A DNA stretch of 63,623 bases, counting the filler, from Dugesia japonica (lineage: Eukaryota): assembly GCA_001938525.1 (NCBI GenBank). It is 6 parts of 6 records of this genome, joined end to end, with 100 filler letters (N's around TTAATTAATTAA, not from the genome) between each part and the next. Parts side by side here need not be neighbours in the genome. Positions count along the whole stretch, not along the records: positions 1 to 13,549 come from MQRL01472448.1; 5 more parts are not named here. The stretch is one strand, 5' to 3'. A model generated the notes under the pieces. That model was not told the origin of the DNA, did no database searches, and was given only the letters and a program-made list of their open reading frames with translations. Shown one piece after another: positions 566 through 45,677 of the stretch (position 1 is its first letter; every line of letters begins with the position of its first letter). The position numbers were made by a program, and so were the translations under genes.

Positions 566-3500
566 GGGCAATCACGCTAGAACTGTAAATGCGGTGATAA
601 GGAAATAGCATCAACTGAAAGCAATTTTAGATGCGTTACCAAAAAAGCGCCAGAATTAATAAATTTTAACGTCAGAAAATATGATGATGCAGAGGAATCT
701 TTGAAATGATTTAAGGATTTAGAAGAGTACACTATCGTTAGCACTTTCAATTTGTTGGATATCTTTGATCTTTTATTGTCAGATGGAGTACGAATTTTTC
801 GGAAAGATTCTAAAAAGATTGAAATCACAATAGAGGAAGCCAAAAGATAGTTCACAGACACATTTATAATAAAAAAAATCGTTTTCAGAGTTGATTTTAG
901 AATCAGCAATTGCAAAAAAAGAGACTGAAGAAAGATTCGCAACATTCGAAATAAGAGTAAGAAATCTGATAGATAATGTCATGAGTTCAGAACTAAGTAA
1001 AGATGAAATAACTAATGACGTACTCTCAAAGAAGGTGAAAAATACAAAGTTGAGAGAAACATTGACAACACGTCCTAATATTAAGATCACGGAAATGAGA
1101 TCCTTAAACAAAGATTTACGAGGACAAGGAACATTTTAAACGAATCACCGAAAAGGATTAATTTTTACAATTGGATTAAAATTGGAAAACCATTTTTGTC
1201 GATGTGCAATATCAGATTAAATGGAGCATTTAATAAGGACGGAGAAAAACCATTGGGAATAGCAGAATTAAGTATACAGTGAAACAAGAAAGTCAGGCAA
1301 ATTAAAGTCATCATAGTTAAACAGATCCACCCAGAATTGATACGCGGTATTGATACAACGCAAAGTTTTGAAGTGAAATTAACAGAAATTAATAACATCG
1401 AAAATGAGAGTCTGAAGATAACACATTCTGATGAAGATAGAAAAATAACGCGTTGAAGTTTTTTAAAGGAATTGATAAAAGAAAAATGGTTCAGTTGATC
1501 CAGAATTTTGTTGAGATATTCATGGCTTCAAAGTTCGATATTGGGCATACGAAAAAAAAAGAAATAAGTAAGAAATAAAAGTTAAAGGAGATCTAATAAT
1601 ACAGCACCCTAGAAGACACCCAATGCATTTAAAAAAGAAAATTGAAGATATGATTAAAGACTTATCAAAGATTGGTGCGATCAACTAGTTTAATAGTTTT
1701 TGGAATTCCCCATTATTGATTGGGGATAAAAAGGACGGCTCAATAAGAATGTGTGTGGATTACAGACAAGTAAATTTGAGAACAAAAAAGTCTCTTTTCC
1801 AATGCAAGACATTCAGTTGTTATTAAATTGTTTATCTGGTTCAAAAGTATTTTCATCCATTGATCTGGGCCAAGCTTATTACCAAGTGGAGTTATCAGAA
1901 AAGTCAAAGGATGTACCTGCTGCTTTCAGTACAAAGAAAGGCAAATTCAGATTTAACCGAATGCCTTTTAGATTAGCTACAGCACCGGCCACTTTTCAAA
2001 AGTTAATGCATGAGTTATCAAAGGGATTAATTTTCAAAAAGGAGTTATTGTATATCTGGACAATATTCTGGTGTACGGAAAAACTTTGAAGGATCACGAC
2101 AAAAGGATAGAGACAGTCTTTTACAAGATCAGAGACTCTGGGTTAAGAATAAAGCCGGAGAAATGTAAGTTTTATCATAAAAGAAGTGTCATTCTTGGGA
2201 CATACAGTTAGTGCAAATGGTATACGTACTAATGAAGTTAAGATTCAGGAGATTAAGAATGCTATAATTTCAGAATGTTCTTCAAAACTCCATTTGTTTC
2301 ACGGACTAACAAACTACTACACGCGTTTCATAAAAGATTATGCAAAGATAGCAGCTCCTTTATCTGAAGCAGCTTCAGGTTGCAACAAACCGTTAGTTTG
2401 GACAGAAGCTTGCCAGAACAGTTTCAATACATTCAAAGACAAGTTATGTAGTGCTCCAGTATTAAAATATCCCAAAGAGCATAGGATGTTTTTTTAGACA
2501 ATGATGCTAGTTTTGTGCAGTTCTTAGTCAATGCGAAGAGTAAAAGGAAGTGATAATAGCGTATGGATCTAGACATTTGACAGCTCATGAAAAAGAATAC
2601 TGTGTGACAAGGAAAGAACAATTAACTACACACGAATTTGTACAACAATTCAAACTATATATGTATGGAAAGAGATTTATAGTAAGAACGGACCACAAAG
2701 CATTAGTGTTTTTGAACCACACAAAGAAACCAATCAGTACACAATTTGAGACACAGATGGAAAATTTGGGAGAGTATGATTTTGAACTCAAGTATTGAAA
2801 AACGCGAAGAACACAACAATGTGGATGAGTTGGCAAGGCTAAATGAGAGTTTATGTTCGCAATGTGGCATGAAACACATAGACACAAAAGAGAAAAAGCC
2901 GGAGTGAAACATATCAATTGGAATTCAACATGAGATCGATGGAATCACAATGATTCGACAGTCTCAAACAGAAGATACAGAAATACAAAGCTGTGTAGCA
3001 ATGTTGCGAGAAGATTTATAGAATAAAGTAGTGAACAAGGAAGCTACTGGAATAAACTGAAACACGAATTGAAAATAGTGAATGATTTGTTTGTAGTAGA
3101 AAGAGAAAATAAAGTTTTGTTAGTGGTTCCAACAAGCATAGTTGATAAAGTGATAAAAGAAATTCATGAAGATTTATGTCACGTGGGAAAAAAAAGTTAT
3201 TTTCATACGTGCACGATTGTTTCTTCTGGCCATGGATGTGCGAGACAATTAATAAAAGTATTGATTACTGCAAAATGTGTGTCAAAAAAACAGTACAAAG
3301 TCCTACAAAAAGAAAAAACGTATACTGTGGAGAAGCCAAAATATTTTAGAACAACTTGTAGTGAACATAGCTCATAGGGAACAGAGCAAGTCTGGACAGA
3401 AATATGTGGTGGTAATTATTGATCGTTTTAACAAACTAGTCAGCTTATCTGCAGTTTCAAAAATGGATGATGAATTGATTTTTATGATAATAACCAAAAT

Positions 3501-3726
3501 CCATTCTGACTGACAGAGGTAAAGTGTTTGAAAGTCAAGTGATGGCAAAGAAACTAGGAAAATTTGGAATTGTACAAGAATTTAGTTCCCCTTATCAACA
3601 CCAGCCAAATGGTTTGGTAAAACGGAAGATCCGAATAGTGAGAGGCATGAGTAAGATATCAATAAAAAGGAAATGTGATGAGAAAGATTCGGAGAAATTA
3701 TTACCGAGAGTAGAATTTAGTACTAA
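566..3726 (+). mobile_element. Degenerate Ty3/gypsy gag-pol (gag, protease remnant, RT, RNase H, integrase), truncated inside integrase
   Basis: RT motifs SIDLGQAYYQV, FRFNRMPFRLATAPATFQ, FLGHTVS; RNase H IAYGSR..EKEYCVT..RTDHKAL; integrase H-x3-CH and SSPYQHQPNG; many stops and frameshifts; gag 891-1139 homologous to 28986-29189. Confidence 0.93.
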
Positions 3727-4039
3727 TGTTGGGTTACTAGGCATTTGATGTTTTAGTTTTGTTTTCCTGATCTTTATTATTAATCTCTCGATCACAATTG
3801 TTTCTTCTCTTAAATATCATTTCTGCCTGAGGGATGATACCTAGTAACTACAAAGATTTGCGTTGCTTTCTCTATTCCCATATTCCCGGATTCAGCGGGA
3901 CTATGCTGTATCCCGTCTTATGTGTTCAATTTCTAATCTATCCGGCTCTCGTTATTCCATGTCATTCTTTATTACATGCTGGTGATATACGCAATAACAA
4001 CTCTTGGTAAATAAAAATTTATTTCTCAAACAACGATGA

Positions 4040-4380
4040 TTACTCATCCAGGTTGATGACTTCCTTGACCATTTCCTTTGTAATCTCTTTCTTCGGCTTT
4101 GAAACTTGTGCCAATGTTCTTACGGTGGATATCAACACCCCCTCTCTGTCAGCATAGGCCCTGATGATGTCGGCCATCCCCGACAGTACTGTGATAAGGC
4201 TAGATCTCTTTCTTTCAGCTTGACATTTGTATCCCGTAGCGACGCATTCTTTTGTTGTAGCTCCGCTATTTGGTTCTGTATTTTTTTGTAAAGAAGCCCA
4301 TTTTTCTGAATGCCCACAATTGGTGTGTCGGTCAGCTTCCTTGTATTTGACACTGCAATTATTGAGAAATTAATATTCAT
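4040..4380 (-). pseudogene. Small coiled-coil ORF (module of row 1)
   Basis: caag|ATG at 4380; heptads IQNQIAELQQKNASLRDTNVKL; continues in a shifted frame to ~4040; AATAAA at ~4020. Confidence 0.5.
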
Positions 4381-4615
4381 CTTGTATCTATATTTGTAAT
4401 AATAGTGTAATTCATAATTGAAAGCATGTTATGAAGTTTTTAAACTTAACAATATTCAAATCAACGACAAAATCTGTGTCGCATAACAACCGGGTTTAAT
4501 CGTCATCATAATTTAATTACTTTAATTCCTCGTAAAATTCTATGTTCACATTTTGTTCGACAGTAAGAAAGCAATTAAAAATAAAATATATTATAATGTA
4601 AACAGATAAGTTGGA

Positions 4616-5150
4616 TCACACAAATGTCTCAACAAAAATTTCTTCTTCATACAACGGAATCAATATTTGTTGTAATGTGGTCTCTACTTTAATAAACAAT
4701 CGATCCAACATCTTCGAATATTCTTCCGCCTCGATCTGTGTAGAACGTAACTCCTGTATTAGCTTTTGTTGCTGCTGAGCCAGTTCTGTAGAGCGAACGA
4801 GCAACGCCACTATTTCCTTTTTGCGAGCCTCTTATTCTCCTGCCAATTCTATGATTCGGTTTCGATAGGTTCGTTCCTGGGTATCTACACTTTTTTGTAG
4901 ATAATCAAGCATTGTTAACTTATGCCGAAGAGTCTCTTCCTGTCGTGAAACTTGCTCTTTCAGTTGGGTTATTTGAGCATCTTTCTGCTTGAAGCGATAT
5001 TGCACAATCCACCACGGATCCGCTTCTGTGCCCTTGGATCCAAGAAAAATCCCACAAATTCGACATACTGTTACATGGATTTGCCTGGAAGGAGCATCCT
5101 TCGGCTCCCAACGAATCTCTGGCCGTGGTATTTGTTATGTGTCGAGACAT
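4616..5150 (-). pseudogene. Frameshifted coiled-coil ORF of ~175 codons (module of row 1)
   Basis: ctag|ATG at 5150; after one frameshift reads ..WWIVQYRFKQKDAQITQLKEQVSRQEETLRHKL..*..ELAQQQQKLIQELRSTQIEAEEY, joining track ORF 4616-4810. Confidence 0.55.
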
Positions 5151-5749
5151 CTAGATAGACATAAATATATATGGATGAATAATATTAGGATATATGACAC
5201 TATAATCTATACATTGAGTTAATTTAATAATAATATAATACTTTTCGTAGGTGGATAATTTATCAGGTTATTAAGTGAACAAGCTATGGATAACTCGTCA
5301 TGATAGAAGGAGTTAGATCTTCTTCATACAGCATGGGCATTTTATAATTTATCATAAGCTGCATCTTTTCATAACTCTTCATTCGTTGGAGGTTTCATAT
5401 AAATCTTTATTCATTAGATGTTATCCCTTCAAAATCTATTTCCTCCTTCATAACGAATGGTCCTCCTGCTAGCTGCGTTATCATATTAAACTTATAAATA
5501 AAGAAGTATCAAATCATATTATAGGAATTATTAAGTTAGGTAAGAAAAATATTTATAATATTAACAGTATTAATATAAATGCATGACTAAAACAATAAGG
5601 TTCAATTATAATTGGACATCGACTTAAAATTTTCACTACAAGTACAATCCTAATAGCACAGTACAATAAGCAATTAACTAAATAACATAGAATTCAACCA
5701 CCACATATCTAATTTATTCGCATTTACTTCTTTACTTCCTCGTCTTTAA

Positions 5750-5970
5750 CCCTCATAAACTTTTACATTTCGTAACCATAATCATTTCATATTTCGTATC
5801 ACTTCATAATCATTTACTACCTCATAATCATCTCGTATCACTTCATAATCATTTAATATCTCCTAATCATTTTATATCTCGTGATAGTTAACATCTCTTA
5901 TAAGCATTAACATCTTCCATAAGCAATAACATCTTTCATCAGTATTCACATCATTCATAAACATTAACAT
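5750..5970. repeat. Degenerate ~20-bp tandem repeat
   Basis: Recurrent CATAATCATTT / CATAAGCATTAACATCT units. Confidence 0.6.
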
Positions 5971-6329
5971 GCGCTCTTTTGAATATGTAAACCATTTTAC
6001 GGTAGTCTTTTAAAAGTTCAGACTTTTTTAATATGAAGTTTTAAAAAAATGCATTTTTGCAGCAAACCATTTGAAGTTTGAAATATTATTCCTAATAATA
6101 TAGGCGATTTCCTATAACTAACAATGAAAATATTATAAAAAGCTCTTAAAACTAAGAAATTGTCTATTTTAAAAAAAGCCTATGACTTAATTGAAACAGT
6201 TTAAATACCCGGAAACTGTATTTTAAAATTATTTTAATAAATAATGTGAAGTTAAACATTTTTATACCAAGGTTTATTCATGAAATCGTTTTCAAATTAA
6301 GCTTAAGGCGCATTTAACAGTTCTGTATG

Positions 6330-7750
6330 ATTTATATACCTTATCATAGCATTTTTTTAAAGGTTTCCACAGACTCACAATGTGACTTTTTTTCATTAGC
6401 CATTCTAAACATTCTTTCTCTTATTTCTTTTGTAGGTGATTTGAACTCTTCTCTATTTATCAAACTGTTTTTGATACGAATTTCTTTAGATTTTTGGGAA
6501 ATGCTTTTTAATTTTGACCAGTCTGTGGGATTTCGAACAACAAACCAAACTGAAGACCATTCATAACTAATAAAACTATTTAGACTTTTAAGATCTTCAT
6601 TATCTACATTAAAAAGTATTTCAGCCATTAAACAATAAATAGCTTTTGAATTCCATCTGGATGAACATACATTAAACGGAATTTGTGGTATTTTAATAAG
6701 TAGTTTATCACCACTTTCTCGTAATGTCCGGATTCCTTTACAAAGTTCAAACAAATACCGATAGTCTTCTCTCCTATTTTCTAAATTAGGAAGGTCAACG
6801 CAGAATATTGGGGACAACTTTTAAACTTCTAAATATTTTTTCTGCAATTCAAACCATTTGGATTTGATTTCATTTACAAAATGGTATGTTTTATTCGGTC
6901 CAGCTGATTTTTCAGTTTCTAGAAAATAATTTATATTCTTCTTTCTCACTAAATCTGTGAGATCTATTTAAAACCATTTCGCTCTAGACTATATGGAGAT
7001 ATTAATAATTTTGATTACACCATTTCGTTTGATTATGATTGTTGTTCGCAATCAAAAAAAATAATTTCAATGTCATATCTCTGAAAAATATTCAAGAGCA
7101 ATGTTGCAATTGTACCTGCTTTTTTATTTGAAATTTCAGTCAATTCTATTAAAGACAAACACATATCATCTCTCTCTTAGAACAATAAAAATCTGATTGT
7201 GTTTAATATCTAAATACATAAATTTAACAAATCCATTGAGTGGAATAATCTTGGACAAATTAAAAGTATCCTTTCTAGTCACCACTGATAAACCACTTAT
7301 TGAAGAAGCTGATGAAAGTTCTTTTAAATATGCGGATTTTGTTTTGTAGAAGTTCATGATTGCTATCGTTTGAAAAATACCAAGATTTCCAATTTCTCTC
7401 AATTGCTCAGAAAATATAATATTTCTGTTTTTGATGCCATTGTCTATATCCATAAAATCTCTATCATAATATTCATCGTCATAAATTTCTTCAAAGCCAA
7501 TTTTCTTTTACTACTATTGCTGTTTTCAAAGAGTTTCATATCATTACTTTTTTTAATGTAAACGTCTCTTTTTTAACCGATGTATTTGCAAATCGAATAT
7601 TGTATACTAGTAATATCCACCTAATTTATACTTTTGGTTATAATAATATTGCTCATCCTCTTCAGATTTCCAAGTGTGTTTTGGTGGAAGACAATCAAAC
7701 CAAGCACCATTATTAGACAGTTACCAATCTTTTAAATTGGTGTATATGTG
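6330..7750 (-). pseudogene. Degenerate DNA transposase, probably hAT (hATm-like)
   Basis: CSSRWNSKAIYCL in ORF 6344-6817 resembles the RW..KAIY signature of hAT-type transposases; broken upstream frames 7166-7453 and ~7600-7710. Confidence 0.45.
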
Positions 7751-8089
7751 GTTGAAGTTCAAAGTTTAAAATTTTTTAAAGTTTTATTAGGTTTATTTTA
7801 TAGCCTTTCATATCTGTAACTATAACTATAAAAAAATAACCTATCTATGGAAAACTTTACTACTTATCAGTGGTGGATTCAAATCAAGCGATTGACCATT
7901 TATTTTACACTTTATTTTTAATTTTATTTCATCGGTAATTGATGATTTTTAACCATGTTTTTCTTACTCAGCGTAAAATTCTCTATCTAATAGACATGAT
8001 GATTTCATGTTACAAGGAGAAAATTTTTTTCAAAAATTTTTTATTTTTGAAAAATAATCCTAGCCGAATAACCCATCAACTGATGTTAA

Positions 8090-8420
8090 AATCTGGATAA
8101 AAAAGTTTTTCAAAAATTTTAAAAATTTCTGCTGTTCACCCTGATTACCATAACAATTTGATTTAAAAATTTAAATATTTAAACAAAATGGACTCTCCCC
8201 CGAATTTCTGTAAATTTTTTGAACTTGAAAATTTAAACAATTCACCTAAATTCTACCAAACTGACCATTGTGAGCAAATACCTTATCAAAAATAACCAAA
8301 ATGAACAATGTTAGCAAATTTTCAATTGAAATTAAGCAAATTAATCATAATCGCCCCAAACCTACAAAAATTGACAATCCCGAGGAAAATCCTTTATAAA
8401 AGTAATCAGGTTCGATTTTA
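8090..8420. repeat. Dispersed repeat with AAACTGACCA / GAGGAAA subunits, related to 40100-40800
   Basis: Shared CTGTTCACCC, ACCAAACTGACCA and CCGAGGAAA motifs. Confidence 0.5.
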
Positions 8421-8811
8421 CTGAGTAAAATTTCTTATCAAAATGAAAAAACAATGAAAGATAATGATTTACAAAAATTATTAAAAATGAAAAATAACAA
8501 AAAAAATAATTATAATTACCATAAAAAATTATTAAAAATAAAAAGTACAAAAAATATAAAAAATTATAAATTGAAAAATATGTGTGGATTTATCTATTAA
8601 GTGTGCTGAAAGGTCTATGTGTCGATTTGTTTTAGTGTCAATTTGTCTGGGTTGAATTGTCTAGTAAACATAGCTTAGATAACAAAAATTTGAATAGATA
8701 GAAGATATTTTTTATCAATATTTTTTAAATAAAAAGTGTAATTTTTTAAAATGTACTTTATATGGAAAGTTGACTGTTATTTAAAATTATTTAAAAATAA
8801 ATACCTTATAG

Positions 8812-9228
8812 CAGGTATCGGTAACCTTTTCTAGTCGTCGGGTATATTTATGATATAAAAAATTTCCGTGGGTACAAAAAAACACGAACACACACACCTT
8901 GAAAATACCGCACAAGAATACGTCGTATGATCAGCTTATTTTTCATTCTCACTATTTTTGTATACGAAATATTGATTGTGGGAAAAGAAAATATTTAGTT
9001 TAGTACATGCACAAACAGACGTTTCTAGTAGACAAAAACTTTGATTGAGTTCTTAGTCAAAATTTAATTAAAGGTTATTAACCATTTTATATAAACTGTA
9101 CAATTATTCAAATAGAGAAATTAAAATCACATTGTCCAATTTTTATTACATCTATGAATACTTACTGGTTTTTATATATTTGAATGTTGACACCAAGATG
9201 CCCAAGAGAACCACGTTGTCGATCCCTT
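8812..9228. mobile_element. hAT MITE
   Basis: Imperfect TIRs CAGGTATCGGTAAC / GTTGTCGATCCCTT; 8-bp flanks CCTTATAG / CTTTAGAG. Confidence 0.6.
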
Positions 9229-9695
9229 CTTTAGAGAATAATTATTAAAATAACTTAAAAATTTCAGGCTAATCACTAAACAAATGATAATAAACTAAAA
9301 TGTGCTATAATTAAACAGAAGTCTAAGCATTATAACATGTACAAGCATTGAAATAGTTCCTAAATCTAATTGAAATCTGCATTACTCAAAACACAAGAAT
9401 CACCATAAAATAAAATATCTGGATTGTTTAGGTATTTCGGTTGACAATATTGTTGGGGTTCCACCTGAGTTTGTGGTATAAAAACATTGCTGGGGAAAAA
9501 CAGCCTTCAGGGGACCCGTTCAAGAATTTAATCTAAAGTCCCTATTTAGATTTTTGGTATAGAGTGGTTGGCTTCCAACACTTATTTGAGGTGCACACAC
9601 GTATACATTTGTTTCGGGTTTAACATGTTTCCTTATTTGAAATTAACCAAAATCAAATAAAAAATTATTAAAACTAAGATTTATTTGGTGACATT

Positions 9696-10057
9696 CTACA
9701 TCAAATCTAGAGCCCCCGGGTCTAACCACTGGGTAGGCTCATCTACCAAATAGTTTAAGGCGGCTTCGTCGTCTTTGTCGTTCCAACGGATACACGCTTC
9801 ATTCCCTAGATGCCTGGATAAATCTGTTATGCAACGATGTAGGAAGTCAATTTTGTGCTGTAATATCTGTTTAGTCTGTTCCGCCAACTCACTCGGCTTT
9901 TTCACTATAAAATCGAGATTCTTAATTAAGCGGTTGCGTTGTGCCAAATGGCGAAATAAAGCTCGTTCTGTTTGTCTTTTAAGGTGACGCTCTACGAGAA
10001 GCTTTTGGATTAGCCGGTGGCATCTACGCAGACTGGTGGGTAATTGTATACGTGGCA
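9696..10057 (-). CDS. Module D: ATG-less basic/helical ORF of ~120 aa after a splice acceptor
   Basis: ttattatctgtttag|TG CCA CGT in frame; stop at 9696; AATAAA at 9680-9685; the track's hydrophobic N-terminus is the polypyrimidine tract. Confidence 0.6.
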
Positions 10058-10264
10058 CTAAACAGATAATAATCATTAAGATAAGAGATAAACTAAGCAT
10101 TTCAAAATTCAAATGAGATCAATAAAGATATCAATCCAGACAAAATAAATTAGTACAAATTCAAGAAGTCTTTTATTTACAAATGAACAGTAATTGCAGA
10201 ATTCAGGGCCGCGATATTTGAGTGCTCTTTTCTATCATAAGCGGCTCAAGCGGCATTCTCTTTC

Positions 10265-10560
10265 TTATTCCAGAATGACATTCAGCAGTTTATTCTCACG
10301 GTCATGGAGGGATCGAAAACTTTTTGCAATGGACTCGATTTGTGACTCCCAGAGCCTTTCTTGGGCATGGGAGGCCTCTGCTTCTTGGCGGAATGCTATG
10401 CATTTCTTTTTGTATCTCTTTACCTCACCTTCTGAAGTGGTCGTGTTGACCTCCCATCGACGTTTTGCAAGGCGATACAAGTACCATGTCATCTCAGTGT
10501 CTTCACTTGATTGACATATTTTTTTAGTGGGTGCCGAGGAGCGGTTTTAAGATAAATGCA
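10265..10560 (-). pseudogene. Module C: coiled-coil ORF of ~98 aa after a splice acceptor, one early in-frame stop
   Basis: ctaat..catcctcatctttgcag|TG CAT TTA TCT TAA AAC.. in frame with track ORF 10265-10492; TGTAAATAAA at 10172-10181. Confidence 0.55.
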
Positions 10561-10720
10561 CTGCAAAGATGAGGATGTCAATTAGTAGTTATAGAAAATT
10601 AAAAAAATCAAACAACAAATTTGATATTTAAAAGATTATTATTCCTTATAATAGCTTATGGAATTCATCAGTAACGTAAAGATACAGTGTGAATACTTTA
10701 GTAATAAAAAAAACAAATAT

Positions 10721-11145
10721 TTATAATGAAGTCTCATTGGCGGGATTCGCGTTCTCGGAATTAATGCTCTCGCCGGAATTACGGATGTTCCACAAATTAT
10801 TCTGAACGAAGGCATTCAGCTCAGAAAAAGGAGGTAAGTGTTCAGTAGACAAACTCACGATGGAAGGGCCTACCTGCTCAATCTGGACGGTTCGTGGTTC
10901 TCCATTAATATCTAACTGAGTTGTGGTAACGGCGTGGTAGACAGCACGTGTGTGATCGGGGTCCGTCCAGTTATAATAGGCCGCACGCTCGTTTGCGTCC
11001 CACTGTCTTTCATCCTCTATTTTATCGGCCGGTAAGTTTGAACGTTCTACGAGAACCCCAGCATCACGGTTATGCGGGTACTTGTAACGTTTAAAAATCG
11101 TACGCGCCGTCCTTCTATCAAGCACGATTTCCCCTTTATATTCCA
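10721..11145 (-). CDS. Module B: ATG-less 141-aa ORF after a splice acceptor, unknown product
   Basis: actaacatattttatag|TG GAA TAT in frame (branch-point-like ACTAAC); open 141 codons, relatively GC-rich. Confidence 0.65.
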
Positions 11146-11286
11146 CTATAAAATATGTTAGTTTTTTTTATCGTGTATAATTAGTGGTAAAATAATAAGA
11201 AAATGTAAGTGTAACTACTTGATTGAAATATTATTTATTTTAGTAAAAACAAAGAAGAAAATTTGTAATGAACGGCAGTCATAGTT

Positions 11287-11487
11287 TCAAGATGGCGATT
11301 GAACTTCTTCGTCCATATCCACATTAAAGTTCAATGGGAACATCTCGACGAAACACTGCAAGTCCGTTTCATCAGGATGTTCCACCAGATGAGGAAACAA
11401 GTGGTGGCCAATAAGTTGTTTGAGCCGAGCCGTCTTACGCTGCTTCCGAATCAAGCGGAGTGTATTTCTTAACTCAGCTGGAATACT
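11287..11487 (-). CDS. Module A: 66-aa ORF with no N-terminal ATG, basic N-terminal half and acidic C-terminal half (absent from ORF track)
   Basis: ttttcattacttttag|AGT ATT CCA = SIPAELRNTLRLIRKQRKTARLKQLIGHHLFPHLVEHPDETDLQCFVEMFPLNFNVDMDEEVQSPS*; AATAAA at 11234-11239. Confidence 0.55.
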   Translation of the reverse strand, partial: SIPAELRNTLRLIRKQRKTARLKQLIGHHLFPHLVEHPDETDLQCFVEMFPLNFNVDMDEEVQSPS

Positions 11488-12272
11488 CTAAAAGTAATGA
11501 AAATTTTAAAAGATTCTAGTTCATCATACTAATGACCTTCTCAAATAAAAACTAAAATAATTTAGAACTAACGAGCGCCGCTAACCTTCAGTTTTTGGTT
11601 AATGTAAACTCCTATAACAGATAATCCCCAAAGTCTGTGAGGGTAATAATGTTTATTATTATCTCAGCTAATTATTAATACACTCACAATCAATATTTTA
11701 ATAGTACTATTAAATCTTCTAGACATAGGCTAACAATCATAAAGATTCTAGTCGAGCTGGGACTAACAGTTTTTATTGCAACTATAGTACTTTTAACGAG
11801 AATAATTATTACGACATTAATAATAATATCAATGATAATAATACACTAATAGTGTGGTCTCTTAATAATAATAATGAGGTTAATATTAGTGATACTAATT
11901 TAGATGCCAATAATAATGTTAAGGATAGTAATAGCAATCATGTTAACAAAATTATTAATTTGGCCAATAATAATGGTGTGACCACCTTTAGGAATTGTCT
12001 TAATACAGAATATTGGCGATAGTTTTACTTACAATAAGTTCCAAAATAAGCTGACGGATAATAGACATCAAATTATTAATAAGAATGATCATTATAACAA
12101 CAGAATGATGGTAATAATATTTTGAATAAAATATTGATGTTTAAATTAGTAATTATCAATACATGACTAGCGACAAAACATTCGATCTTAAATCAAATAA
12201 CAGGAATAATTTGTAATATTGATTATTTACTATGATAGTGGTGGTTGCAATCGCATCTAATAGAAAAAGGAA

Positions 12273-12517
12273 CTACCGGTGCAACAAGTCATCTAGATCG
12301 GCATTACTGGTAAACTTAAATAGGCCACTAATCATTGTTATGAGAGTGAAAAACACAAGTATGTATGTAATAATATGAGTAACACTCCTGAGGCAATGGG
12401 GCAGGCCATGACAGGGTTTATAGCCAAATTCACTAAAGTCCATACACAAATCTCGTAGTGACTCAGTGCCAGAATCAATATCACACACCAATTCGCATAA
12501 TTTCTTGTGGATTCCAT
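12273..12517 (-). CDS. Small Cys-containing hydrophobic (TM-like) ORF; frame ambiguous
   Basis: 72-aa frame with IITYILVFFTLITMISGLF overlaps a 59-aa ATG frame (MESTRNYANWCVILILAL..) that is also hydrophobic. Confidence 0.3.
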
Positions 12518-12689
12518 TTTACGCCAAAAGGCTAGTCTAAGTGATCATTGCATCAAAACAGAGAAATTGAATCGGATAATAATTATACTCGTGATATTTC
12601 TCAACACAGAAATAACACTGTCAATAACTACGATTTAGACTTTTCTGACATGGTGATCGTTATAGTCGTTGTTGGAATTTCAACAATTG

Positions 12690-12846
12690 GATTTATTTTA
12701 TAATTACAATTATTGTGAGAGTAAATGTTGAACTTAACCATTGATCGCATTTGAGATTTCATTAAAATAAGAAAAAGCTTCGATCAAAATAAAATTTATT
12801 TGTTAAAAGGTTCAAATTTTCGATAATAGTCTTCTTCAGATATTGG
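12690..12846 (-). repeat. Copy of short hammerhead-bearing (Penelope pLTR-like) repeat, degenerate core
   Basis: Matches 57995-58157; minus strand CTGAAGA-agactattatc-GAAA. Confidence 0.65.
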
Positions 12847-13549
12847 CTTCTTGAGATATTCAATACAATAGATCTTTGTCACTCAATTCTTTAAATTTTA
12901 TCGAAATTTTATTGGTTTATTTTTTTTATACTTTTAATTTTAACGATTTTAATTTTTATTTTTAAATCAACTCAAAAAATTTCAAAATTTTTTTTTCATT
13001 AATACAGAAAAGTCTTTTAGATATATTATACTAAGAATTTTTTAATTTTTTTAAATTTTTGTTATTTTTTTGAAAATTTTTAAAAATTTTATTGTGTTTT
13101 TTTAATATATAATTTATGTTATTTTAAATAAATGTTATTTTTTAAAAATTTCTTTTTTAAAAATCATTCAAAAAGGAACTAATTTTACATAAAATTATAA
13201 AATTAATTTTTTTTGAATTAAAATTTTTTTTAAAAGTTAAATTCGTATTAGGACAACTAATTAATATATATAATTAATATTATTTCGTTTTTTAAATTTT
13301 TTATATAAAAAATATATCTATTTTAAACATATTATTTATAGATATTGATATAAACTTTTTTTTTAAATCAAAAATATTTTTTCAAATATTTTAATTGTTG
13401 AACACTACATTAATCTGAGGTTTATATTCTTTAATTAAAATTTGTTCATGTTTCTTTCTGTGAAGTGTAGAAATTTAGCATGTTCCTAATGTTTTCCATG
13501 TAATATGATGATTTTCTGGTAAAACATTATGTTTGTTTTGAAAGTGTTT

Positions 13550-13649
13550 NNNNNNNNNNNNNNNNNNNNNNNNNNNNNNNNNNNNNNNNNNNNTTAATTA
13601 ATTAANNNNNNNNNNNNNNNNNNNNNNNNNNNNNNNNNNNNNNNNNNNN
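13550..13649. other. Artificial scaffold spacer
   Basis: N44-TTAATTAATTAA-N44, exactly 100 nt; identical spacers at 27350-27449, 36190-36289, 45228-45327, 55257-55356. Confidence 0.97.
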
Positions 13650-16600
13650 TTTTAGCGGATGGATGGCAACCAGAAGTGTATGGCAAATTTGAAGTTGAGT
13701 ATCAGGGGAGAACAGTATCGCATGAAATGACAGTATTGAAAATGAGTGAGGATTGCATATTGGAAACGGATCTAATTCTATTATTGATGAAAAATGTAGT
13801 TTTGGATATGACCACATTGAAAATATTGAATTCCAGAGAAAATTTATATATGAAGGATAATGAAGTATATACAAACGAAAAATTGGTGATACCGAGGAGG
13901 AGTCAAGTATTTTGTATTGCGAAAACCCAAGCAAACTGTAAAGAGGATATGAATTTTGAACCACATGAAGGGTTCTCAAAGCGATATAAATTGACCGGCG
14001 AGGGAAATAGTAAAATTGTCTGACGAAGGAAAAGTGCCAGTCAACGTACTGAATATGACAGAAGAAGATATTACGATATATCCAAATTCAAAAATCGNNN
14101 NNNNNNNNNNNNNNNNNNNNNNNNNNNNNNNNNNNNNNNNNNNNNNNNNNNNNNNNNNNNNNNNNNNNNNNNNNNNNNNNNNNNNNNNNNNNNNNNNNNN
14201 NNNNNNNNNNNNNNNNNNNNNNNNNNNNNNNNNNNNNNNNNNNNNNNNNNNNNNNNNNNNNNNNNNNNNNNNNNNNNNNNNNNNNNNNNNNNNNNNNNNN
14301 NNNNNNNNNNNNNNNGCGTGGACAGACAATGAATTAGGTACGTGTGCGGTGACAAAACATTCAATAGTATTAACAGACGAAACACCAATAAAGTTGCGAA
14401 CTTACAAACAAGCCGAAGCAAACCGAAAGATCTGTGAGGATAAAATTGACGAAATGCTAAAGTGTAAAGTAATCGAGTCAAGTTGTTCACTGCGGTAATT
14501 TCCAGTGGTATTGGTGAAAAAGAAAGATGGAACCATGAGATTCTGTATCGATTACAGACAACTAAATGCNNNNNNNNNNNNNNNNNNNNNNNNNNNNCCA
14601 GACATTAACGATATGTTAACGTTATTATATAATGCAAAGATATTAACGACATATGATTTGCAGAGTGGATATTGGCAAATCAAAATAGAGGAAGCAGACA
14701 AAGAGAAAACCACATTTTTAGCAGGCAAAGATTTATATCAATTTGTGCGAATGCCNNNNNNNNNNNNNNNNNNNNNNNNNNNNNNNNNNNNNNNNNNNNN
14801 NNNNNNNNNNNNNNNNNNNNNNNNNNNNNNNNNNNNNNNNNNNNNNNNNNNNNNNNNNNNNNNNNNNNNNNNNNNNNNNNNNNNNNNNNNNNNNNNNNNN
14901 NNNNNNNNNNNNNNNNNNNNNNNNNNNNNNNNNNNNNNNNNNNNNNNNNNNNNNNGACTTATTTGGGGCATCTGATATCAGACAAAGGAAAACAACCGGA
15001 TCCGACGAATATCGAAAAAATCAAGAATTTACCTGTGTCGATAAACGTGAACTACATTCAAGTGTTACTAGGAATGGCGAATTATTATCGAAAATTTATC
15101 AAAAGATTTGCGACAATCGTGAGACCTATTCAATCACTAGTGAAACAAGACGTAAAATTCATTTGGACAGATGAGCATCAAAAAGCATTTGAAACAATTC
15201 TAGAAAAGTTAATGACGGCACTGATATTGGTACAACCAGATTTTAGGAAATCATTTAGACTTGCAACGGATGCAAGCGGTTACGCAATGGGTGCAGTATT
15301 AAGTCAATTAGATGAAGAAGGACGAGAAAGAGTGATCGGATATTTTAGTAAAACATTNNNNNNNNNNNNNNNNNNNNNNNNNNNNNNNNNNNNNNNNNNN
15401 NNNNNNNNNNNNNNNNNNNNNNNNNNNNNNNNNNNNNNNNNNNNNNNNNNNNNNNNNNNNNNNNNNNNNNNNNNNNNNNNNNNNNNNNNNNNNNNNNNNN
15501 NNNNNNNNNNNNNNNNNNNNNNNNNNNNNNNNNNNNNNNNNNNNNNNNNNNNNNNNNNNNNNNNNNNNNNNNNNNNNNNNNNNNNNNNNNNNNNNNNNNN
15601 NNNNNNNNNNNNNATTACAAGCAAATAGAATAGCCAAATGGGCGATGAAGTTACAAGAATATGCACCGCTGGTCAAATACAAAACTGGAAAAGCAAGAGC
15701 AAAATTTACAGACGAACCAGAAGAAGTGTTAGAAAATAAAGCAGCCAGGGGTGAATGGATAGACTTACAGCAATTGATGAATCGAGACATACGATCTTTA
15801 TGTATGATATTGGCAGAGAATAAAGATTTTACCGGATTAAAAAAGGATCAGTACTAGGACGAGGAAGTGAAAATAATACTAGAGTATATATCTCACTTTG
15901 ACTTGAGTAAAGTGGAGTGTAACAAAGCGATTAAAGAACACTTAAAGAAACGAGGTGGTAGATATACCATGGTAAATGAGTGGTTAATGATGAAGAAAGG
16001 TGATCAACTATTATTGGTAATACCAAAATGTAGACGAGTAAAAATACTTGAGCAGTACCAAAATGGAATTCTAGGAGGTCATATGTCAGCAAAGAAAACT
16101 GAATCAAAATTACGAGCTAAATATTATTGGCCTCANNNNNNNNNNNNNNNNNNNNNNNNNNNNNNNNNNNNNNNNNNNNNNNNNNNNNNNNNNNNNNNNN
16201 NNNNNNNNNNNNNNNNNNNNNNNNNNNNNNNNNNNNNNNNNNNNNNNNNNNNNNNNNNNNNNNNNNNNNNNNNNNNNNNNNNNNNNNNNNNNNNNNNNNN
16301 NNNNNNNNNNNNNNNNNNNNNNNNNNNNNNNNNNNNNNNNGGCATTTGCATTAAAGGATCAAAAAGCGTCGACAATCGCCAGAGTATTAGTCGATAAGTT
16401 ATTCAGTCGGTATGGACCACCGAAAACGATATTGACAGATCAAGGAAAGAACTTCATGAGTGAATTAATGAAAGAAATGACTAGTTATTTTAATATTCAT
16501 AAAGTACGGATATTGGTGTATCATCCACAAACGGATGGAATAACGGAGCAATTCAATCAGACATTGACTAGAATGTTATCGAGTTATGCGACGAAATTCC

Positions 16601-17510
16601 AGAGAGATTGGGACAAACATTTGAATTTGTGTTTANNNNNNNNNNNNNNNNNNNNNNNNNNNNNNNNNNNNNNNNNNNNNNNNNNNNNNNATGTACGGTC
16701 GAGAATGTAATATGCCAATAGATTTGGAGCATCAGCCACCGATATCGCAGTACATGGGCGAAGATGATTATGTTACTGGTATGAAAGAGAGAATGCGAGA
16801 AATATAGAAATTGGCAGCGTTAAATGCGAAATTTAATCAAGAAAGTTATAANNNNNNNNNNNNNNNNNNNNNNNNNNNNNNNNNNNNNNNNNNNNNNNNN
16901 NGAGAACATCCCGCAACAAAAGCTTCACCTTTTAAACTTATGTACGGTCGAGAATGTAATATGCCAATAGATTTGGAGCATCAGCCACCGATATCGCAGT
17001 ACATGGGCGAAGATGATTATGTTACTGGTATGAAAGAGAGAATGCGAGAAATATAGAAATTGGCAGCGTTAAATGCGAAATTTAATCAAGAAAGTTATAA
17101 GGAATTGTATGATCGAGAAACAAAGCCCCGTACGTTTAAAAAGGGTGATATGATACTGATTAATACATCAACAATTGAAATTGGAACCACAGATAAATTA
17201 AAACGACCAAACAAAGGACCGTATTTAGTGTTAAAAACAACTGCAAAAAATCTAAAAGTAAAGGAAGTTGGAAAGCCACTCAAGAAGCCAAGTATTGTTC
17301 ATGTATCGAAATGTAAACTAGCAACAACCCAAGACGACAATGATAAAGAAAGCGATGAGGAGACTGTTGAAAGAGTGAGACGAGTCAAGGTCAAGCCAAA
17401 AACGGAGGACAGTGACGAGGAGGTCAAACAAAACTTTAAAAAGACAAAAGGAGTTAGTTTCAAACCGAGATTAATTGATGAGGAGAATCGATACCCAATC
17501 AGGTCCAGAC
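13650..17510 (+). pseudogene. gypsy pol: protease end, RT, RNase H, integrase
   Basis: VLVKKKDGTMRFCIDYRQLN; DLQSGYWQI; YLGHLIS; LATDASGYAMGAVLSQ; GGHMSAKKT..YYWP; TDQGKNF..YHPQTDG; GPY motif; C-terminal RYPIRSR. Confidence 0.95.
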
Positions 17511-20500
17511 AGCAAATAATGATGATAATGGGGAAAACAATCAAAGCGGTAGACGTCAATGTGAGTACATGCAATCAGAGGAATCTAGTCTTGCGATGTA
17601 AAATATGTCACTGTACAAGTTCTATTACAGTGCCATTAAATAAAGTGCTTATGAGCAAAATATGTTTTCACTGTTTACAATCGATTTATGATAACTTAAC
17701 GTTGATGGAGAAAAGTGTCAAACGAGAATCATTACAAGAGGATAGGAAGGAACCCAATCGTTCCACATGTGAATAATGTAATGAAATAGCGTTCAAACAG
17801 AAAGTAGACTCGGACTTATATCAGCAATGGTGTAATAGTTACCTGTGTAAGGCTAAAGGAATTATTGACAATGAATTGGAGGGCTTACATGTACATATGA
17901 GAGGATCAACAGCAGCCAATTCTATTAGACGAGATATAGAATTAACTCATGACGAAATTTTACAAAAATTCAAATTAAATGATCAATTAAAAATTTATGA
18001 AAATAGACGAGATATGCTTAATCAATATTATTCTTCAGTGACGGACGACTGGAAGAAAGGAAATCGAAAATGCGACAATCCAAGATGTGGACGATATAAC
18101 ATGAAAGGACTAATTCCCCAAATTCAGACAACGATAACGGGGGAAATGGTTACGATTCACTAGAGGAAGTGGTAAAAAGCGGGATGATGGACTATTGTGA
18201 ATTAAGCGGACGACCACCGCATGCAGAGTAGGGGGATACACCAAAAATCACTAAATTAAAGGATGCTGTATGGGAGGAGTTTTTGACACAACAAAAGAAG
18301 TATGAAGCAGAGAATAGTCAGAGAGTCAAAGCTGAGGAAGACGATATATTTAACGCAGAGACGATAGCTATGATGAGAGCGTATTTTATAGATAGTGTTG
18401 ATTCCAACAGCCGTACTAGAAAAGATTAAGGCGTGCGGTGAAGGATGTTATCAAAAATGGATCCAGGAACATAAAAAGGAAGGAAAACCGAGATTACCGG
18501 AACATAAAGACAAAAAGACGCCCGGAGAGCGGCCAACGTCAAAAGAGGAGCGAAAAAGAAAGGAAAAAAATAAGGAAATAGAAACTGCAATATTATTAAC
18601 AGTAGAAAGAGTATTGCGTCGTGGAATGGACATACCTAAAGAGAAAAAGTTGGAAATGCAAGCGTATTATCAAAGGAGAAAACGCAAATGGTGTGCAGAA
18701 CGTCCAGGAGAAAAGTTTCCCACGATACGGGATGGGTATAGGATGGAGAGATGGCCGAGAGATCAAGAACTCCAAAAGTATCATGAACGAGAGTATAAGA
18801 GAATGCGGTGTGCTTTACAAAAAGCTAGAGGAATATTTAAAAATTGAGGAATCGTACAACGGAAAATCTCTTATCGAACAAGATTGCGAAGAGCGATTCA
18901 TAAGAAGTGAAGATATGGTAATTGAGTACCAGAGAATAGCAGATGTGTATCCACATCCATTGTTGGTAGAAGAGAGTGAAGCGATGAAAAAATAATACCT
19001 ACAAGCAATGCAGCGTAAAGCAAAACAAGAAAAAGAACAGGATTCGAGCAAGCGCCAAAGTCAAGTGGAGATGTGGAAATAAGAATGGGGCAAACAATTG
19101 CAAAAATGTTATGGAATCACGGAACCAGAAACGAAAACTAAAACGCTAAAGGAAGCAGAAACATTGAACTTTTGAGGGATTATTGAGGACGACACAAAAG
19201 ATAATGACAAAGTTGAGGACGAGATAGTAGTAATTGGAATGATGGACCTTAAGGGCAATGTCCTGTTTGAGATGCCTTTTACACCTGAGTTAATGAAGGA
19301 GATTAGAGCAATTCAAGAAAAACAAGAAGAAAGAAAGGTTGGAACAAGACAATATGAGTGTGGAGTGAAAAAGAATCAAATAATAGAACAAGAAATTAAC
19401 TTAGTGATGGAACAGGCAACGATTAAAGAACCGAGTCGAGGAACTCCGTTACCAGAACCACCACAAATGGAAATGACACGTCAGAAGGAAATTATGTATA
19501 CCCGATGAAGAAATCCGAATCACAGGACCCTGTTTACGAAAATGAGTCAGGAGATCTAAAGGTGGAAACAAAGAGGACATACTTCTTACCTACAATCAGA
19601 ATTCGGGATTATTCGAAGCCAACAGAGAGTGTAGTTTTTACTACTACCACTATATTCATGTGTTCTATTCTACGCGTGACCGGTATGAGCCAGTCTGGCT
19701 CGGATTCAGAGGCAAATGTCAGAAAAAACGGGCGGGGTATATCTCGCAAGTCTGGAGAATCGAACTACGGGGAGTGATGGGAATTCAATGGAACCGGTTC
19801 CCATTAGGTATATGGAGACAGCACGCCACCTTACGAAAAGAAGAGTGGCCTATGATGGATATGAAAATGCGTATAGTAGACAAAGAGATGCAGAAGTTAC
19901 GTTCCAAGGGTCACGTAGAAGAAAATGGTTTTTTCGGATTAAGCAATATCAGTCTTTAACATATTGGATGCAAGACGGGATGTTACAAGAATATAGATGG
20001 GAACGTAACCAAAACGAAATGATAATGAAGCTTAATCAAGAAAATGTGGAGTGGTTAGAATTAGAATATATATTATTAGACGAGATGCCACCGAGCAACA
20101 AGGCAATAACCGTCAAACCGACGACAAAAGGGAGAACAAAAGCGAAAACCTACTTAAAGACGGCAATGGTCAAGTCAACAACAGAGAAGTGGAGGACGAG
20201 GGTGTATTCAAAAATGACAACGACAGCGATAACAACTATCATGAAGAGAGGTACGACAGAAACCAGTGTACAAAGTAAAAGGAGGAACCATATGATGACG
20301 GGGTATGCGAAAACGACAACTGAAAGTGAATCAACGAGGAAGCCATCGAATGTATTAAATAAACANNNNNNNNNNNNNNNNNNNNNNNNNNNNNNNNNNN
20401 NNNNNNNNNNNNNNNNNNNNNNNNNNNNNNNNNNNNNNNNNNNNNNNNNNNNNNNNNNNNNNNNNNNNNNNNNNNNNNNNNNNNNNNNNNNNNNNNNNNN

Positions 20501-20714
20501 NNNNNNNNNNNGTGGTGGAGTAGCGGGCGTCATTACGATTATCATGATGACGATTATAACAATATTAATTTGTAAAGCGAAACGAGGGCAGTATTCGAGA
20601 CTGCGTTTGGAACCGGAATTAAGAGAATTGACAGCAAAATATTTGCATCCGCCAAGAGAGTTGGTGCGATCGGGAGTTCCAGAGGGAGGAACTGGGTTGC
20701 TATGGAGTTATTGA
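17511..20714 (+). pseudogene. Decayed ~1000-codon extension of pol: Cys-rich part, charged helical region, putative ectodomain, Thr-rich stalk, TM helix and short tail
   Basis: In frame with integrase; CxxC pairs (CKIC, CFHC, CE*C); 17060 and 17876 ORFs share a frame across one stop; TM GGVAGVITIIMMTIITILIC followed by KAKR. Confidence 0.6.
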
Positions 20715-20930
20715 GGAGAATAGTGAGAGTGAAGTTGTAAATAAATTTCCTGAAATTTAACAGTAAGGTACACAATTTAGTTTTGAGTAGCTCNAAATGT
20801 AAAGTAGAGCATAGCTGATTAAATTGAAATTAAAATGTGAATTAGTTGAATAAATTTGAATTTTATATGGATCACTATAAAATTTATCGTAGTATTTAGT
20901 TAGTAAAGAATGGAACAGAAACAGATAACA

Positions 20931-21425
20931 ATGAACGGACAACTAGCAGTAAATGTGGATCTAGACGACTTCGACAGAGCAATTACGGAGGAACCATGAC
21001 AAACGTATACCCAGATGCTTAATCAACTTTTAAATCCTTATTTTACAATGGAAATTTTGTGGGACGAACACTGCCGAAGCGTAATGAGAAATTCAGATAT
21101 GTTAAACGAGCAACTTCAACAGACACGACAATTAAACGCAATCCTTGTGGAGAATGTAAATTTTCATGTGTTGCAGATACATCGACTGAATAAAATAGTA
21201 GAGAATCAGAGACGACAGATTACCGAGAATCAGAATTTTTACCTACAAACTTTGAGTGGAACTAACAAAATAGTAGAGGATCTGAGACACCAAGTGGATG
21301 AGTTACAAGCCTATAATGCAGAGCTTATTCTATCCGGAATTAATCGACTACCGAGCGTATCCGCCATCCTGAACACTATCGAGACGAGCGAGAGGATGTG
21401 GTATCGAGAAGAGAGTAATGTATGA
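20931..21425 (+). CDS. Accessory coiled-coil ORF (one internal stop upstream of 21015)
   Basis: ATG at 20931 in frame with track ORF 21015-21425; heptads IVEDLRHQVDELQAYNAEL; AATAAA at 21518. Confidence 0.6.
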
Positions 21426-21588
21426 TAAAAGGTGCTAAAACGTAGAGTATTGTAAAGTATGTGTGTTAAATAGTAACTGTATTACTATTCAAAAAAAATC
21501 AAAAACAGTAAAAGTATAATAAAAGTAGAGTGGCAATTATATTTATTTAATCAGTGCGTAATCAGAATAATTCCAATTTGTATATAGA

Positions 21589-21809
21589 ATGTCTGAAGAT
21601 TTTCAAAGGCTGTGGAGTTGTGGGGTGGAGACGATCACGATAGAGAAGTCAAGTTTGGAACAGAAATCAATCGCAGAATTACAATTTCGGTATTAAATTT
21701 ACCTTGTGAGCATGTAGCAGTTTGTCAAAAATGTCACCAGAGAAACGAGTTTAAGCGATGTGAAGTGTGTAAATGTCCAATAGAGGAGTGGCATGTGGTG
21801 TATTTATGA
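21589..21809 (+). pseudogene. IAP/MDM2-type C-terminal RING finger (C3HC4_3-like), first CxxC missing
   Basis: LPCEHVAVCQKC..RCEVCKCPIEEWHVVYL*; tatag|aATG upstream but out of frame; TGTAAATAAA at 21828-21837. Confidence 0.75.
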
Positions 21810-21996
21810 GTGGAATACCCGGTAAATTGTAAATAAAAATAAAATCAGGAAACAGTACAGTAAAAGTAACAAAGGAAGCAATATTAAAACAATTGGTACA
21901 TATCAGTCTCAATTAAAAGTTGAATTATCAGTAACTCCCAATATCTTAATATGTAGATATTCCATATTATGATTTACGTATATTTCAATTAAGAGA

Positions 21997-22984
21997 ATGG
22001 CATCCAGATATCAGAAAAGTATGAGTCGACAACGAGTGCGATCAAAAGATATTTTGAGAAAAGTAATTCCATCAACAATGACAACTCCCGTCTATATTAC
22101 TAACCGAGAACACAGGAAAATAAAGCGAGTGAACAGCTACGCGGTGGCGAGTCGCCGAAATTACAGTCAAATATACTTGAAATAGAGGATCAGGTTGATT
22201 CATGTTGCAGATCAAGTTGAATCAATCCAAATCCAATCCCCAAGGTCACGATGAACCATTTGATGAAATAGAACAATCCCGAGCTCAGTGGAAACAGGCA
22301 TGTTTAGCCAAAGAAGAGAAAATACATCAACTACAACTGGAATTGTCATCCATGCAAAAAAGACATCTAGATCAGGTCAAAGAATTAGAAACGGAGATCA
22401 AGTGGCAGAGCAAGAAAATAAAAATGCTCGAGAAAACCATGGAAAATAATAACGAAATCAGAATTGTGAATCAACGAACTCCCCAAGTGAAGACGAATAA
22501 ATTGCAAGAAGAAATCGATCAATTAATAAAAGAAAGTCGAAACCAACAATCGCAAAGAGAACAAGATATGATCGAAATTCAAAACCTAGAAAATGCCGTA
22601 AAGCATCTGCGCGATGAGAATGTTCTCTTAAAGGAAACTCCTATTCGAGTAGTAATCCCTCCACGTCAAATTAAAACTACAAAGCGAGAACAGACCTTTT
22701 ATACCTATAAAATCAATGGGCGATCAGTAGCCCCACAAATCAGCTTATTAGACCAAAGAGCGAATCATAAAAGAAAAGATCAAGTGTCTCAATTTTCCCG
22801 TCAATTTCCCAATTCTCAGTCCAGTCAATCCAGCCCATCCTATCCTACGACTTGGACAAATGAACAATCGCAATGGCCATATTCAGCGTCCGAAGAGGAT
22901 CTGTTCAAAAGGTTAAAAATCTGGTTAAAAGGGAATAACTGGACTCAGAGAACTCGGAAAAAGTTCGGAAAAGAAAATTCATAA
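21997..22984 (+). pseudogene. Accessory long coiled-coil ORF with basic N-terminus and S/Q/P-rich tail (frameshift near 22185)
   Basis: aagag|aATG at 21997; heptads EEKIHQLQLELSSMQKRH..LQEEIDQLIKE..IQNLENAVKHLRDENVLL; AATAAA at 23058. Confidence 0.6.
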
Positions 22985-23196
22985 GCAGAACTAGGTCATA
23001 AATAATGACGGAGATTACATTATTGATTAACTTATTATGGTAAAAAGAAATGTTCTCAATAAAGGTTTTAAATTATTAAAAAATCGCCGAAAATTATGTT
23101 ACAACTTAATTACAAATAATTATAATCTGACTTTTTTCTTGTTAAAATGAATCAAAAATCTACATTATTTTTCGTTTTCATAATAATAATTAGTAA

Positions 23197-23620
23197 AAGA
23201 TTGGAAAGTGGTATATTGAAAAGTTAAGACGCAATTGTATTCGTCGTTCCAGATTCAATGAAGGCGTTCAACCATTAACTACGTTCAAGATCTCAATACC
23301 CACAGAAGTGAAATTTAATTCTTATGTCACTGCGGATAACAATCTCCTAGTTGCAGATATTCCATCTACTCATGACATTCTAAATCAACTACTAGCACCA
23401 AATTTAAACGATGTAAATGTTGATGATGACAACTTTATTGATGTTCTACTCGATCTGACTATTCACGACCGCATGTGAATGGTGGGCGAATCTACGACGT
23501 CTTTTGGAAACATTGAATGAAGTCCTCACAATTACCACGAAATCTAGAACTACGGAGATCACAGAGTCTGATTGCGATGAAGCCAAGGACAATGAGTCTG
23601 AGATGGAAGATCTAAATTAG
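23197..23620 (+). pseudogene. Fourth accessory ORF, acidic, decayed (absent from ORF track)
   Basis: Stop-free frame KIGKWYIEKLRRNCIRRSRFNEGVQP..DVNVDDDNFIDVLLDL to 23478; acidic tail in a shifted frame ends TAG at 23620. Confidence 0.45.
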
Positions 23621-45227: not shown

Positions 45228-45677
45228 NNNNNNNNNNNNNNNNNNNNNNNNNNNNNNNNNNNNNNNNNNNNTTAATTAATTAANNNNNNNNNNNNNNNNN
45301 NNNNNNNNNNNNNNNNNNNNNNNNNNNTTCCGTTGAAGTTAAACTCAGCTTTATAGTTGTAGATATCGTTCCTGAAATATGCGTTCAGATTTAGTTAAGA
45401 ACAGGATTGCAGACAGCTCAAAACAGACACATATCGTATCGAATGCTAAATGTATCAAATGCAAAAGCACTGGTGGTTGAGGATACACTTCAGACACCAC
45501 TGGGAGAGTTTACGACGCTCCCGGTGCATACCAGCTAATCATGATGGTGCCGAGGGAGCCTCGTTTGTCTCCGTCCCAACAATTTAAAACTTTGCTTCCC
45601 CCTAAAATTAATTCTGCGGTCGCCCATAGCTTTGTACGAATAATTTTAAATTGAAAAATTAATTATGTAAAATATAC

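Follow-up and report, generated by a model that had tools for sequence, protein, structure and literature searches.

A row of acceptor-led small reading frames with putative start codons split at predicted splice sites in Dugesia japonica

We describe a row of four small minus-strand reading frames in Dugesia japonica, at least two of which would receive their start codon by splicing. The window, the whole stretch analysed here (63,623 nucleotides with filler, from assembly GCA_001938525.1), is AT-rich animal DNA and rich in decayed gypsy and other transposon pieces. The row, called Row 2 below, consists of four cassettes in series, each made of an acceptor-like site, a GC-rich ORF, a stop and an AT-rich spacer (Table 1). 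In modules B and D the reading frame begins directly behind the acceptor with TG, giving the arrangement AG/TG, where the slash marks the predicted splice junction, so that one A from an upstream exon would complete an AUG. The cassette design is real and probably functional, and the present copy is partly decayed. Start codons built by splicing are already known; a multi-gene row with split starts would be the new side.

Layout of the row

A YAG acceptor was found immediately 5' of each of positions 11487, 11145, 10560 and 10057 on the minus strand, as the original prediction had stated for B, C and D, and its reading that these three modules open with TG is borne out. Module A, predicted to be in phase 0 without an N-terminal ATG, opens with AGT and has methionines only at residues 49 and 58 of 66. 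Each module has its own stop (A at 11287, B at 10721, C at 10265 and D at 9696), and an AATAAA stands behind A (at 11239), C (at 10177) and D (at 9685) but not behind B, all as predicted. The spacers had been given as 140, 159 and 206 nt; recounting yields 141, 160 and 207 nt, each one nucleotide longer. The modules are supported as separate small genes rather than internal exons of one protein.

The GC content of windows within the spacers is 0.15-0.25 and rises to values mostly of 0.4-0.5 within the ORFs, with the step at or just past the acceptors. T-rich tracts lie ahead of B, C and D, and their branch-like motifs stand at -16 (B), -21 and -25 (C) and -22 (D) from the exon; within 50 nt 5' of the acceptor of module A no branch-like motif is present. 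Having AATAAA behind at least three of four stops has a probability of P = 0.012 in shuffles. A further AATAAA is located at 10294 (minus strand), within the coding end of module C. All four frames have a coding-like bias at codon positions 1 and 2; at position 2 the share of A is 0.36-0.39 and that of G 0.12-0.18.

Table 1. Features of Row 2 and its surroundings, listed in the direction of the minus strand
Feature	Position	Strand	Basis
TGTTATAGG, possible LTR 5' end	11611..11619	-	putative
Module A, phase-0 ORF, 66 aa, N-terminal Met absent	11287..11487	-	frame reading
AATAAA behind module A	11234..11239	-	motif scan
A-B spacer, 141 nt, 21% GC, CTAAC branch-like motif, acceptor TAG	11146..11286	-	
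Module B, AG/TG and 140 Met-free open codons; Met of homologue P0001 aligns at the split codon	10721..11145	-	
B-C spacer, 160 nt, 23% GC, without AATAAA, CTAAT/TTGAC branch-like motifs, acceptor CAG	10561..10720	-	
Module C, AG/TG, TAA as codon 5, then 93-aa body ORF with Met 19	10265..10560	-	
C-D spacer, 207 nt, AATAAA at 10177, TTAAT branch-like motif, acceptor TAG	10058..10264	-	
Module D, AG/TG and 119 open codons, Met solely at the last	9696..10057	-	
AATAAA behind module D	9680..9685	-	motif scan
Candidate leader donor ...AAAACCA/GTAAGT, ending in A, intron from 9165; lead only	9160..9185	-	

Putative start codons at the acceptors

Modules B and D are ORFs without an AUG of their own, and the open frame of each starts with an incomplete codon immediately behind the acceptor. 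Module C fails this description in the present copy and module A is in phase 0. The prediction of an in-frame AG/TG three times over thus holds for B and D but not for C, where a TAA at 10549-10547 shuts the A/TG frame after four residues. The body ORF of C (10546-10265) lies in the same frame as the A/TG. Among the indels listed is one in another copy that shifts the frame between the C acceptor and this body, with 59 further indel rows beside those listed; C may be broken in the present copy or be of another phase. B and D, which have no usable Met of their own, accordingly fit a splice-completed AUG, which in the present copy is not supported for C. The original prediction claimed too much for C and for how far the four modules form one system.

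The N-terminus of module B is marked by a homologue. A HMMER pass with B over 1.84 billion protein representatives returned two matches, P0001 and P0002. P0001 is a protein of 94 aa from a single 512-bp ENA contig, and it is 50% identical to residues 1-62 of B (E 1.3e-11 over all 1.84 billion representatives). It aligns again near the C-terminus of B, with about 30 internal residues missing. Its called Met falls exactly at the X/TG of B, and may be the gene caller's reading of either GTG or ATG. The Met at the split codon together with the second alignment near the C-terminus suggests that B is likely a complete small protein that begins at the split codon. P0002 is a BACON-repeat protein and was judged spurious as a relative of B.

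Searches of other collections gave little. The ESM Atlas held no usable match to B, word-index searches found no homologues of B, D or A, and no Pfam family matched modules A-D above the cut-off. PHROGs gave a single weak match, for D (E 0.01), the PDB search with the modules gave nothing below E 0.1, metagenome and viral contigs contained no matching locus, and Rfam had no match over 3600-13549.

The position of the P0001 start would be equally expected from a GTG or ATG call, which bears on a start that needs no splicing. Here B and D would begin at the genomic GTG that AG/TG always forms in frame, or intact copies would have an ATG there, and the AT-rich spacers would account for the acceptor-like appearance; contigs of sequencing run X7, which is probably DNA, also cross the A and C acceptors unspliced. 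We regard this reading as quite unlikely. It has to explain the branch-like motifs at -16 to -25 and the T-rich tracts ahead of B, C and D, as well as spacers of 141-207 nt in which no promoter is evident, and GUG initiation is weak in animals.

Kinship between the modules

The similarity of A and D over 35 residues has a score that was reached by 4 of 2000 shuffles, and A is likely a paralogue of the N-terminal part of D, judging from the alignment. This resemblance suggests that the bank grew by cassette duplication. Between B and D kinship is undetectable, since 177 of 500 shuffles reach the score. A homology of C with a Row 1 module at 4352, plausible around a DRE motif, was rejected as 190 of 2000 shuffles reached its score. 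One synonymous and two non-synonymous substitutions are visible in B and C together, too few for an inference on selection.

Paralogy of A and D would also fit a model in which all modules shared an upstream coding exon, ending in phase 1 for B and D or phase 0 for A. The split codon would then encode Leu, Val or Met inside a longer protein, and TG would recur by cassette duplication. A phase-0 module requires such an exon or a spliced leader (SL), and in the ZAM, Beagle and idefix subclades splicing joins env to short peptides encoded upstream (bioRxiv 10.1101/2023.08.03.551782, excerpt). We nevertheless hold a coding first exon to be rather unlikely: with B and D not detectably related, recent duplication fails to explain their common TG, and a start-type codon is still there in the 50%-diverged homologue of B.

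How far chance explains the pattern

TG comes right behind 35 of the 483 acceptor-like sites in the window, a background of 7.2%. The combination of an acceptor, a GC step and at least 60 open codons occurs at eight sites. Rows 1 and 2 account for five of them, of which three start with TG with a long frame behind (11145, 10057 and 4352). When N-free stop-to-stop ORFs of at least 90 codons were considered, an in-frame YAG/TG within the first 25 codons was present in 4 out of 45, namely in B, in D and in two ORFs of retroelements. The latter sites, at 3079 and 18396, were rejected as modules and counted as background. Block shuffles produced two such starts in 0 of 5000 cases and one start in 24 of 5000, a procedure that also destroys ORFs. 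The filters were fixed after the modules had been seen, and a stricter acceptor/GC filter failed to pick up B. The pattern exceeds chance, resting on two clean cases and one in Row 1.

The small number of clean cases and the thresholds set after the fact would suit decayed gene fragments whose pattern is partly coincidence and carries no regulatory meaning, as would the broken module C and the decayed gypsy debris in the adjoining DNA. Such an origin is improbable in our estimate, as the frames of B and D are open throughout, a whole-length homologue of B exists and the cassette anatomy is repeated four times over.

Copies and RNA coverage

Reads or contigs from 4 of the 24 listed runs were mapped to 3700-13549. 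For run X7 the RNA label is a guess; it covers 30 of 30 bins and is probably DNA. One X7 contig is identical to module A, and others are diverged by 10-14% (29 of 219 letters over D, 36 of 355 over C and 31 of 229 over B), with one contig running across the spacer upstream of C and C itself into the C-D spacer. The diverged copies indicate that the row belongs to a repeat family, and dispersed copies that differ by this much are what a Ty3/gypsy-type element would show.

Read depth in X7 is 305-461 in the bins adjoining Row 2 versus 21-88 over B-D, where depth is summed over contigs and does not give a copy number. Row 1 likewise has flanks deeper than its core. Deeper flanks around the cores would fit conserved element ends that enclose variable cargo.

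Of each of three raw RNA runs, made from poly(A) RNA or cDNA, 6-25% was read, and the B-D depth was at most 0.54 per direction in all three. Junctions were counted from three reads up; 40 joints and 1006 loose ends came in addition to those listed, crowded by a high-copy repeat. Among the loose ends listed none was at any of the acceptors, and at a B-D depth of at most 0.54 a lack of junction reads speaks neither for nor against splicing. The repeat at 12583-13549 has a very high copy number and dominates the read depth; it is also found near 51900, 55450 and 58000.

Element type and candidate leader donor

The row is likely an accessory-gene bank of a decayed LTR-type mobile element. The core GTTATAGGA of the putative terminus at 11611..11619 recurs only at 6118, upstream of Row 1. 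No same-strand gag-pol linked to the row was found, the nearest pol (about 1700-3750) being on the opposite strand about 6 kb off, and a solitary LTR would likewise lack a linked gag-pol. Neither a paired LTR nor a second copy of the row was found in the window, and no convincing target duplication; of the TG/CA/TSD pairings, 19 passed a loose filter and none stands out. Between Row 1 and Row 2, at 6347-7700 on the minus strand, are decayed ORFs of 158 and 113 aa (6347-7507), which are repeated in the genome, have some X12 RNA reads and match no Pfam or PHROG family.

A candidate donor for a leader ending in A begins its intron at 9165. The string A/GTAAGT occurs five times when both strands of the 60,585 non-N bases are counted, and joining the 9165 donor to B would give the strong context ACC-AUG-G. 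A donor downstream of the row is plausible only on the view that the row is the U3 of an LTR and the leader comes from the R/U5 of the other LTR. Directly before the donor is a TATA-like TATATAAA, in which case the donor would lie upstream of a start site. It could also open an ordinary short intron belonging to another unit, with an AG 69 nt beyond it as the acceptor. On the upstream side the sole donor ending in A is a weak A/GTATGA at 11529; it was rejected for its weak consensus, for lying 42 nt before A and because it would not start A.

Proposed mechanism

We infer a single short leader ending in A that would be spliced in cis to alternative terminal exons, completing the AUG of B and D, with a separate poly(A) signal terminating each mRNA, and we give this reading an even chance. 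The leader would donate the A, and the AG/TG acceptor of B or D would supply UG. Each cassette would act as an alternative 3'-terminal exon, and use of its acceptor would switch on the poly(A) signal behind that cassette, so that one gene would be expressed per mRNA. Unspliced RNA would read GTG at these starts and be poorly translated, so that splicing would control expression. Whole cassettes were probably copied as the bank grew, in which case the repeated AG/TG need not mean independent inventions. If the row is an LTR U3, the leader would come from the R/U5 of the 5' LTR, which in a lone LTR lies downstream, and the 9165 donor would fit. Module A and perhaps C, being phase 0, would need another donor or have decayed in the present copy.

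A wider version of this proposal is more doubtful. It holds that the element possesses a bank of accessory micro-genes in which a single donor ending in A builds each AUG, that none of them is translatable from genomic RNA, that splice-site choice alone selects the protein, and that cassettes are added by duplication of the acceptor-ORF-poly(A) unit. If true, start codons built by splicing, so far a matter of single viral genes, would also serve a modular system of several genes in a retroelement of an invertebrate, with accessory-gene control resembling that of complex retroviruses. Split-start genes would furthermore be invisible to ATG-based annotation, so that whole families of transposon micro-proteins may be missed, B having one homologue among the 1.84 billion representatives.

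Comparison with known systems

The adenovirus major late unit joins a single leader to alternative acceptors and has alternative poly(A) sites as well, as is proposed for the row, and retroviral accessory genes such as MMTV sag and HIV nef are encoded by the U3 of the LTR. Unlike B and D, the adenovirus major late genes, sag and nef each have their own AUG.

In errantiviruses of the springer subclade, the AUG of env is built by splicing to an AU dinucleotide (AU/G), which like the row puts the AUG of a downstream ORF across a splice junction, and the host of env is a Ty3/gypsy element (bioRxiv 10.1101/2023.08.03.551782, excerpt). The springer case is AU/G, concerns one gene and is mapped by RNA, whereas the row has a predicted A/UG in at least two small genes of four, with separate poly(A)-like signals. 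In the EBV EBNA-LP, alternative splicing decides on the existence of the AUG and there are several poly(A) sites, much like in our proposal; unlike the row, it is a herpesvirus system in which one protein's AUG is made in this way and the other genes have their own starts (bioRxiv 10.1101/2025.04.23.648900, excerpt).

Small accessory ORFs with a poly(A) site between them are also known as sORF1 and sORF2 of the MDG1 group, which differ from the row in lying upstream of gag and in having transcripts without splicing (PMC11952523, excerpt). The giant planarian gypsy elements Burro/GYPSM1 share with the row accessory ORFs, tandem repeats and an AT-rich flatworm genome, but their cargo is mainly domains of one huge polyprotein, and the excerpt of PMC6431247 does not mention split starts. 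In the window no link of the row to a Burro gag-pol was found.

Flatworm operons have spacings of at most 300 bp, with an intercistronic median of 99 bp and mean of 233 bp in S. mansoni, and flatworm SLs end in ATG (PMC12582326, excerpt). In Macrostomum the intercistronic spacing peaks at about 100 bp (PMC8629364, excerpt). SL-resolved operons resemble the row in their short AT-rich spacers and in a leader that can donate an AUG, whereas a whole AUG suits only the phase-0 module A and misfits AG/TG (PMC12582326 and PMC8629364, excerpts). The row could accordingly be one pre-mRNA cleaved behind each gene, with an SL-borne AUG for A and perhaps C, and B and D served by another route, for example with TG as a tandem acceptor 2 nt downstream. 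The same-strand spacing of the modules is within 300 bp and matches that of flatworm operons (PMC12582326, excerpt), and AATAAA stands behind three of the four and is followed by an acceptor. TG can be used as an alternative 3' splice site, although such acceptors were reported for 36 human genes only (PMC2374985). We consider an SL-resolved operon unlikely: an SL-type AUG is in frame for A, and placed on AG/TG it gives the wrong frame in B (32 codons) and D (15 codons), so that an SL can explain the phase-0 modules only.

Our literature search, whose coverage stopped short of the original Burro description and the supplementary mapped env junctions, found no description of a multi-gene split-start bank, and the excerpts of PMC13524379 and PMC11410931 hold nothing on such banks.

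Row 1 and other features of the window

Row 1 (4043-5500, minus strand) consists of GC-rich, acceptor-led, coiled-coil-like ORFs that are broken by stops and frameshifts. It has an AG/ATG at 5150 and an AG/TG at 4352, which opens a frame of 72 codons. Row 1 adjoins the truncated integrase of a gypsy element (about 570-3750) in opposite orientation, and its end at about 3732 reads CCTAGTAAC, which resembles an inverted TGTTA(C)TAGG terminus. The flanks of Row 1 and Row 2 have no similarity at the DNA level (189 of 200 and 51 of 200 shuffles reach the score). Upstream of Row 2, at 12276-12518 on the minus strand, is an ORF of 81 aa with cysteines and a hydrophobic stretch and without a Pfam match.

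A large decayed gypsy-like element occupies 13600-23500 on the plus strand, with pieces of pol and extra ORFs behind the integrase. Among its parts is a Thr-rich ORF at 19689-20711 (plus strand) whose C-terminal segment is hydrophobic, and at 20931-23478 (plus strand) there are several small sense ORFs, mostly with their own ATG; no Pfam family was found above the cut-off. The minus-strand ORF at 45659-46129 is, we presume, similar to the DUF4062-type domain of TEP1/NWD proteins and probably a host exon. From their translations, we take the stretches at 58259-59401 and 61165-61395 to be Penelope-like RT/GIY-YIG fragments together with a hAT-like transposase fragment.
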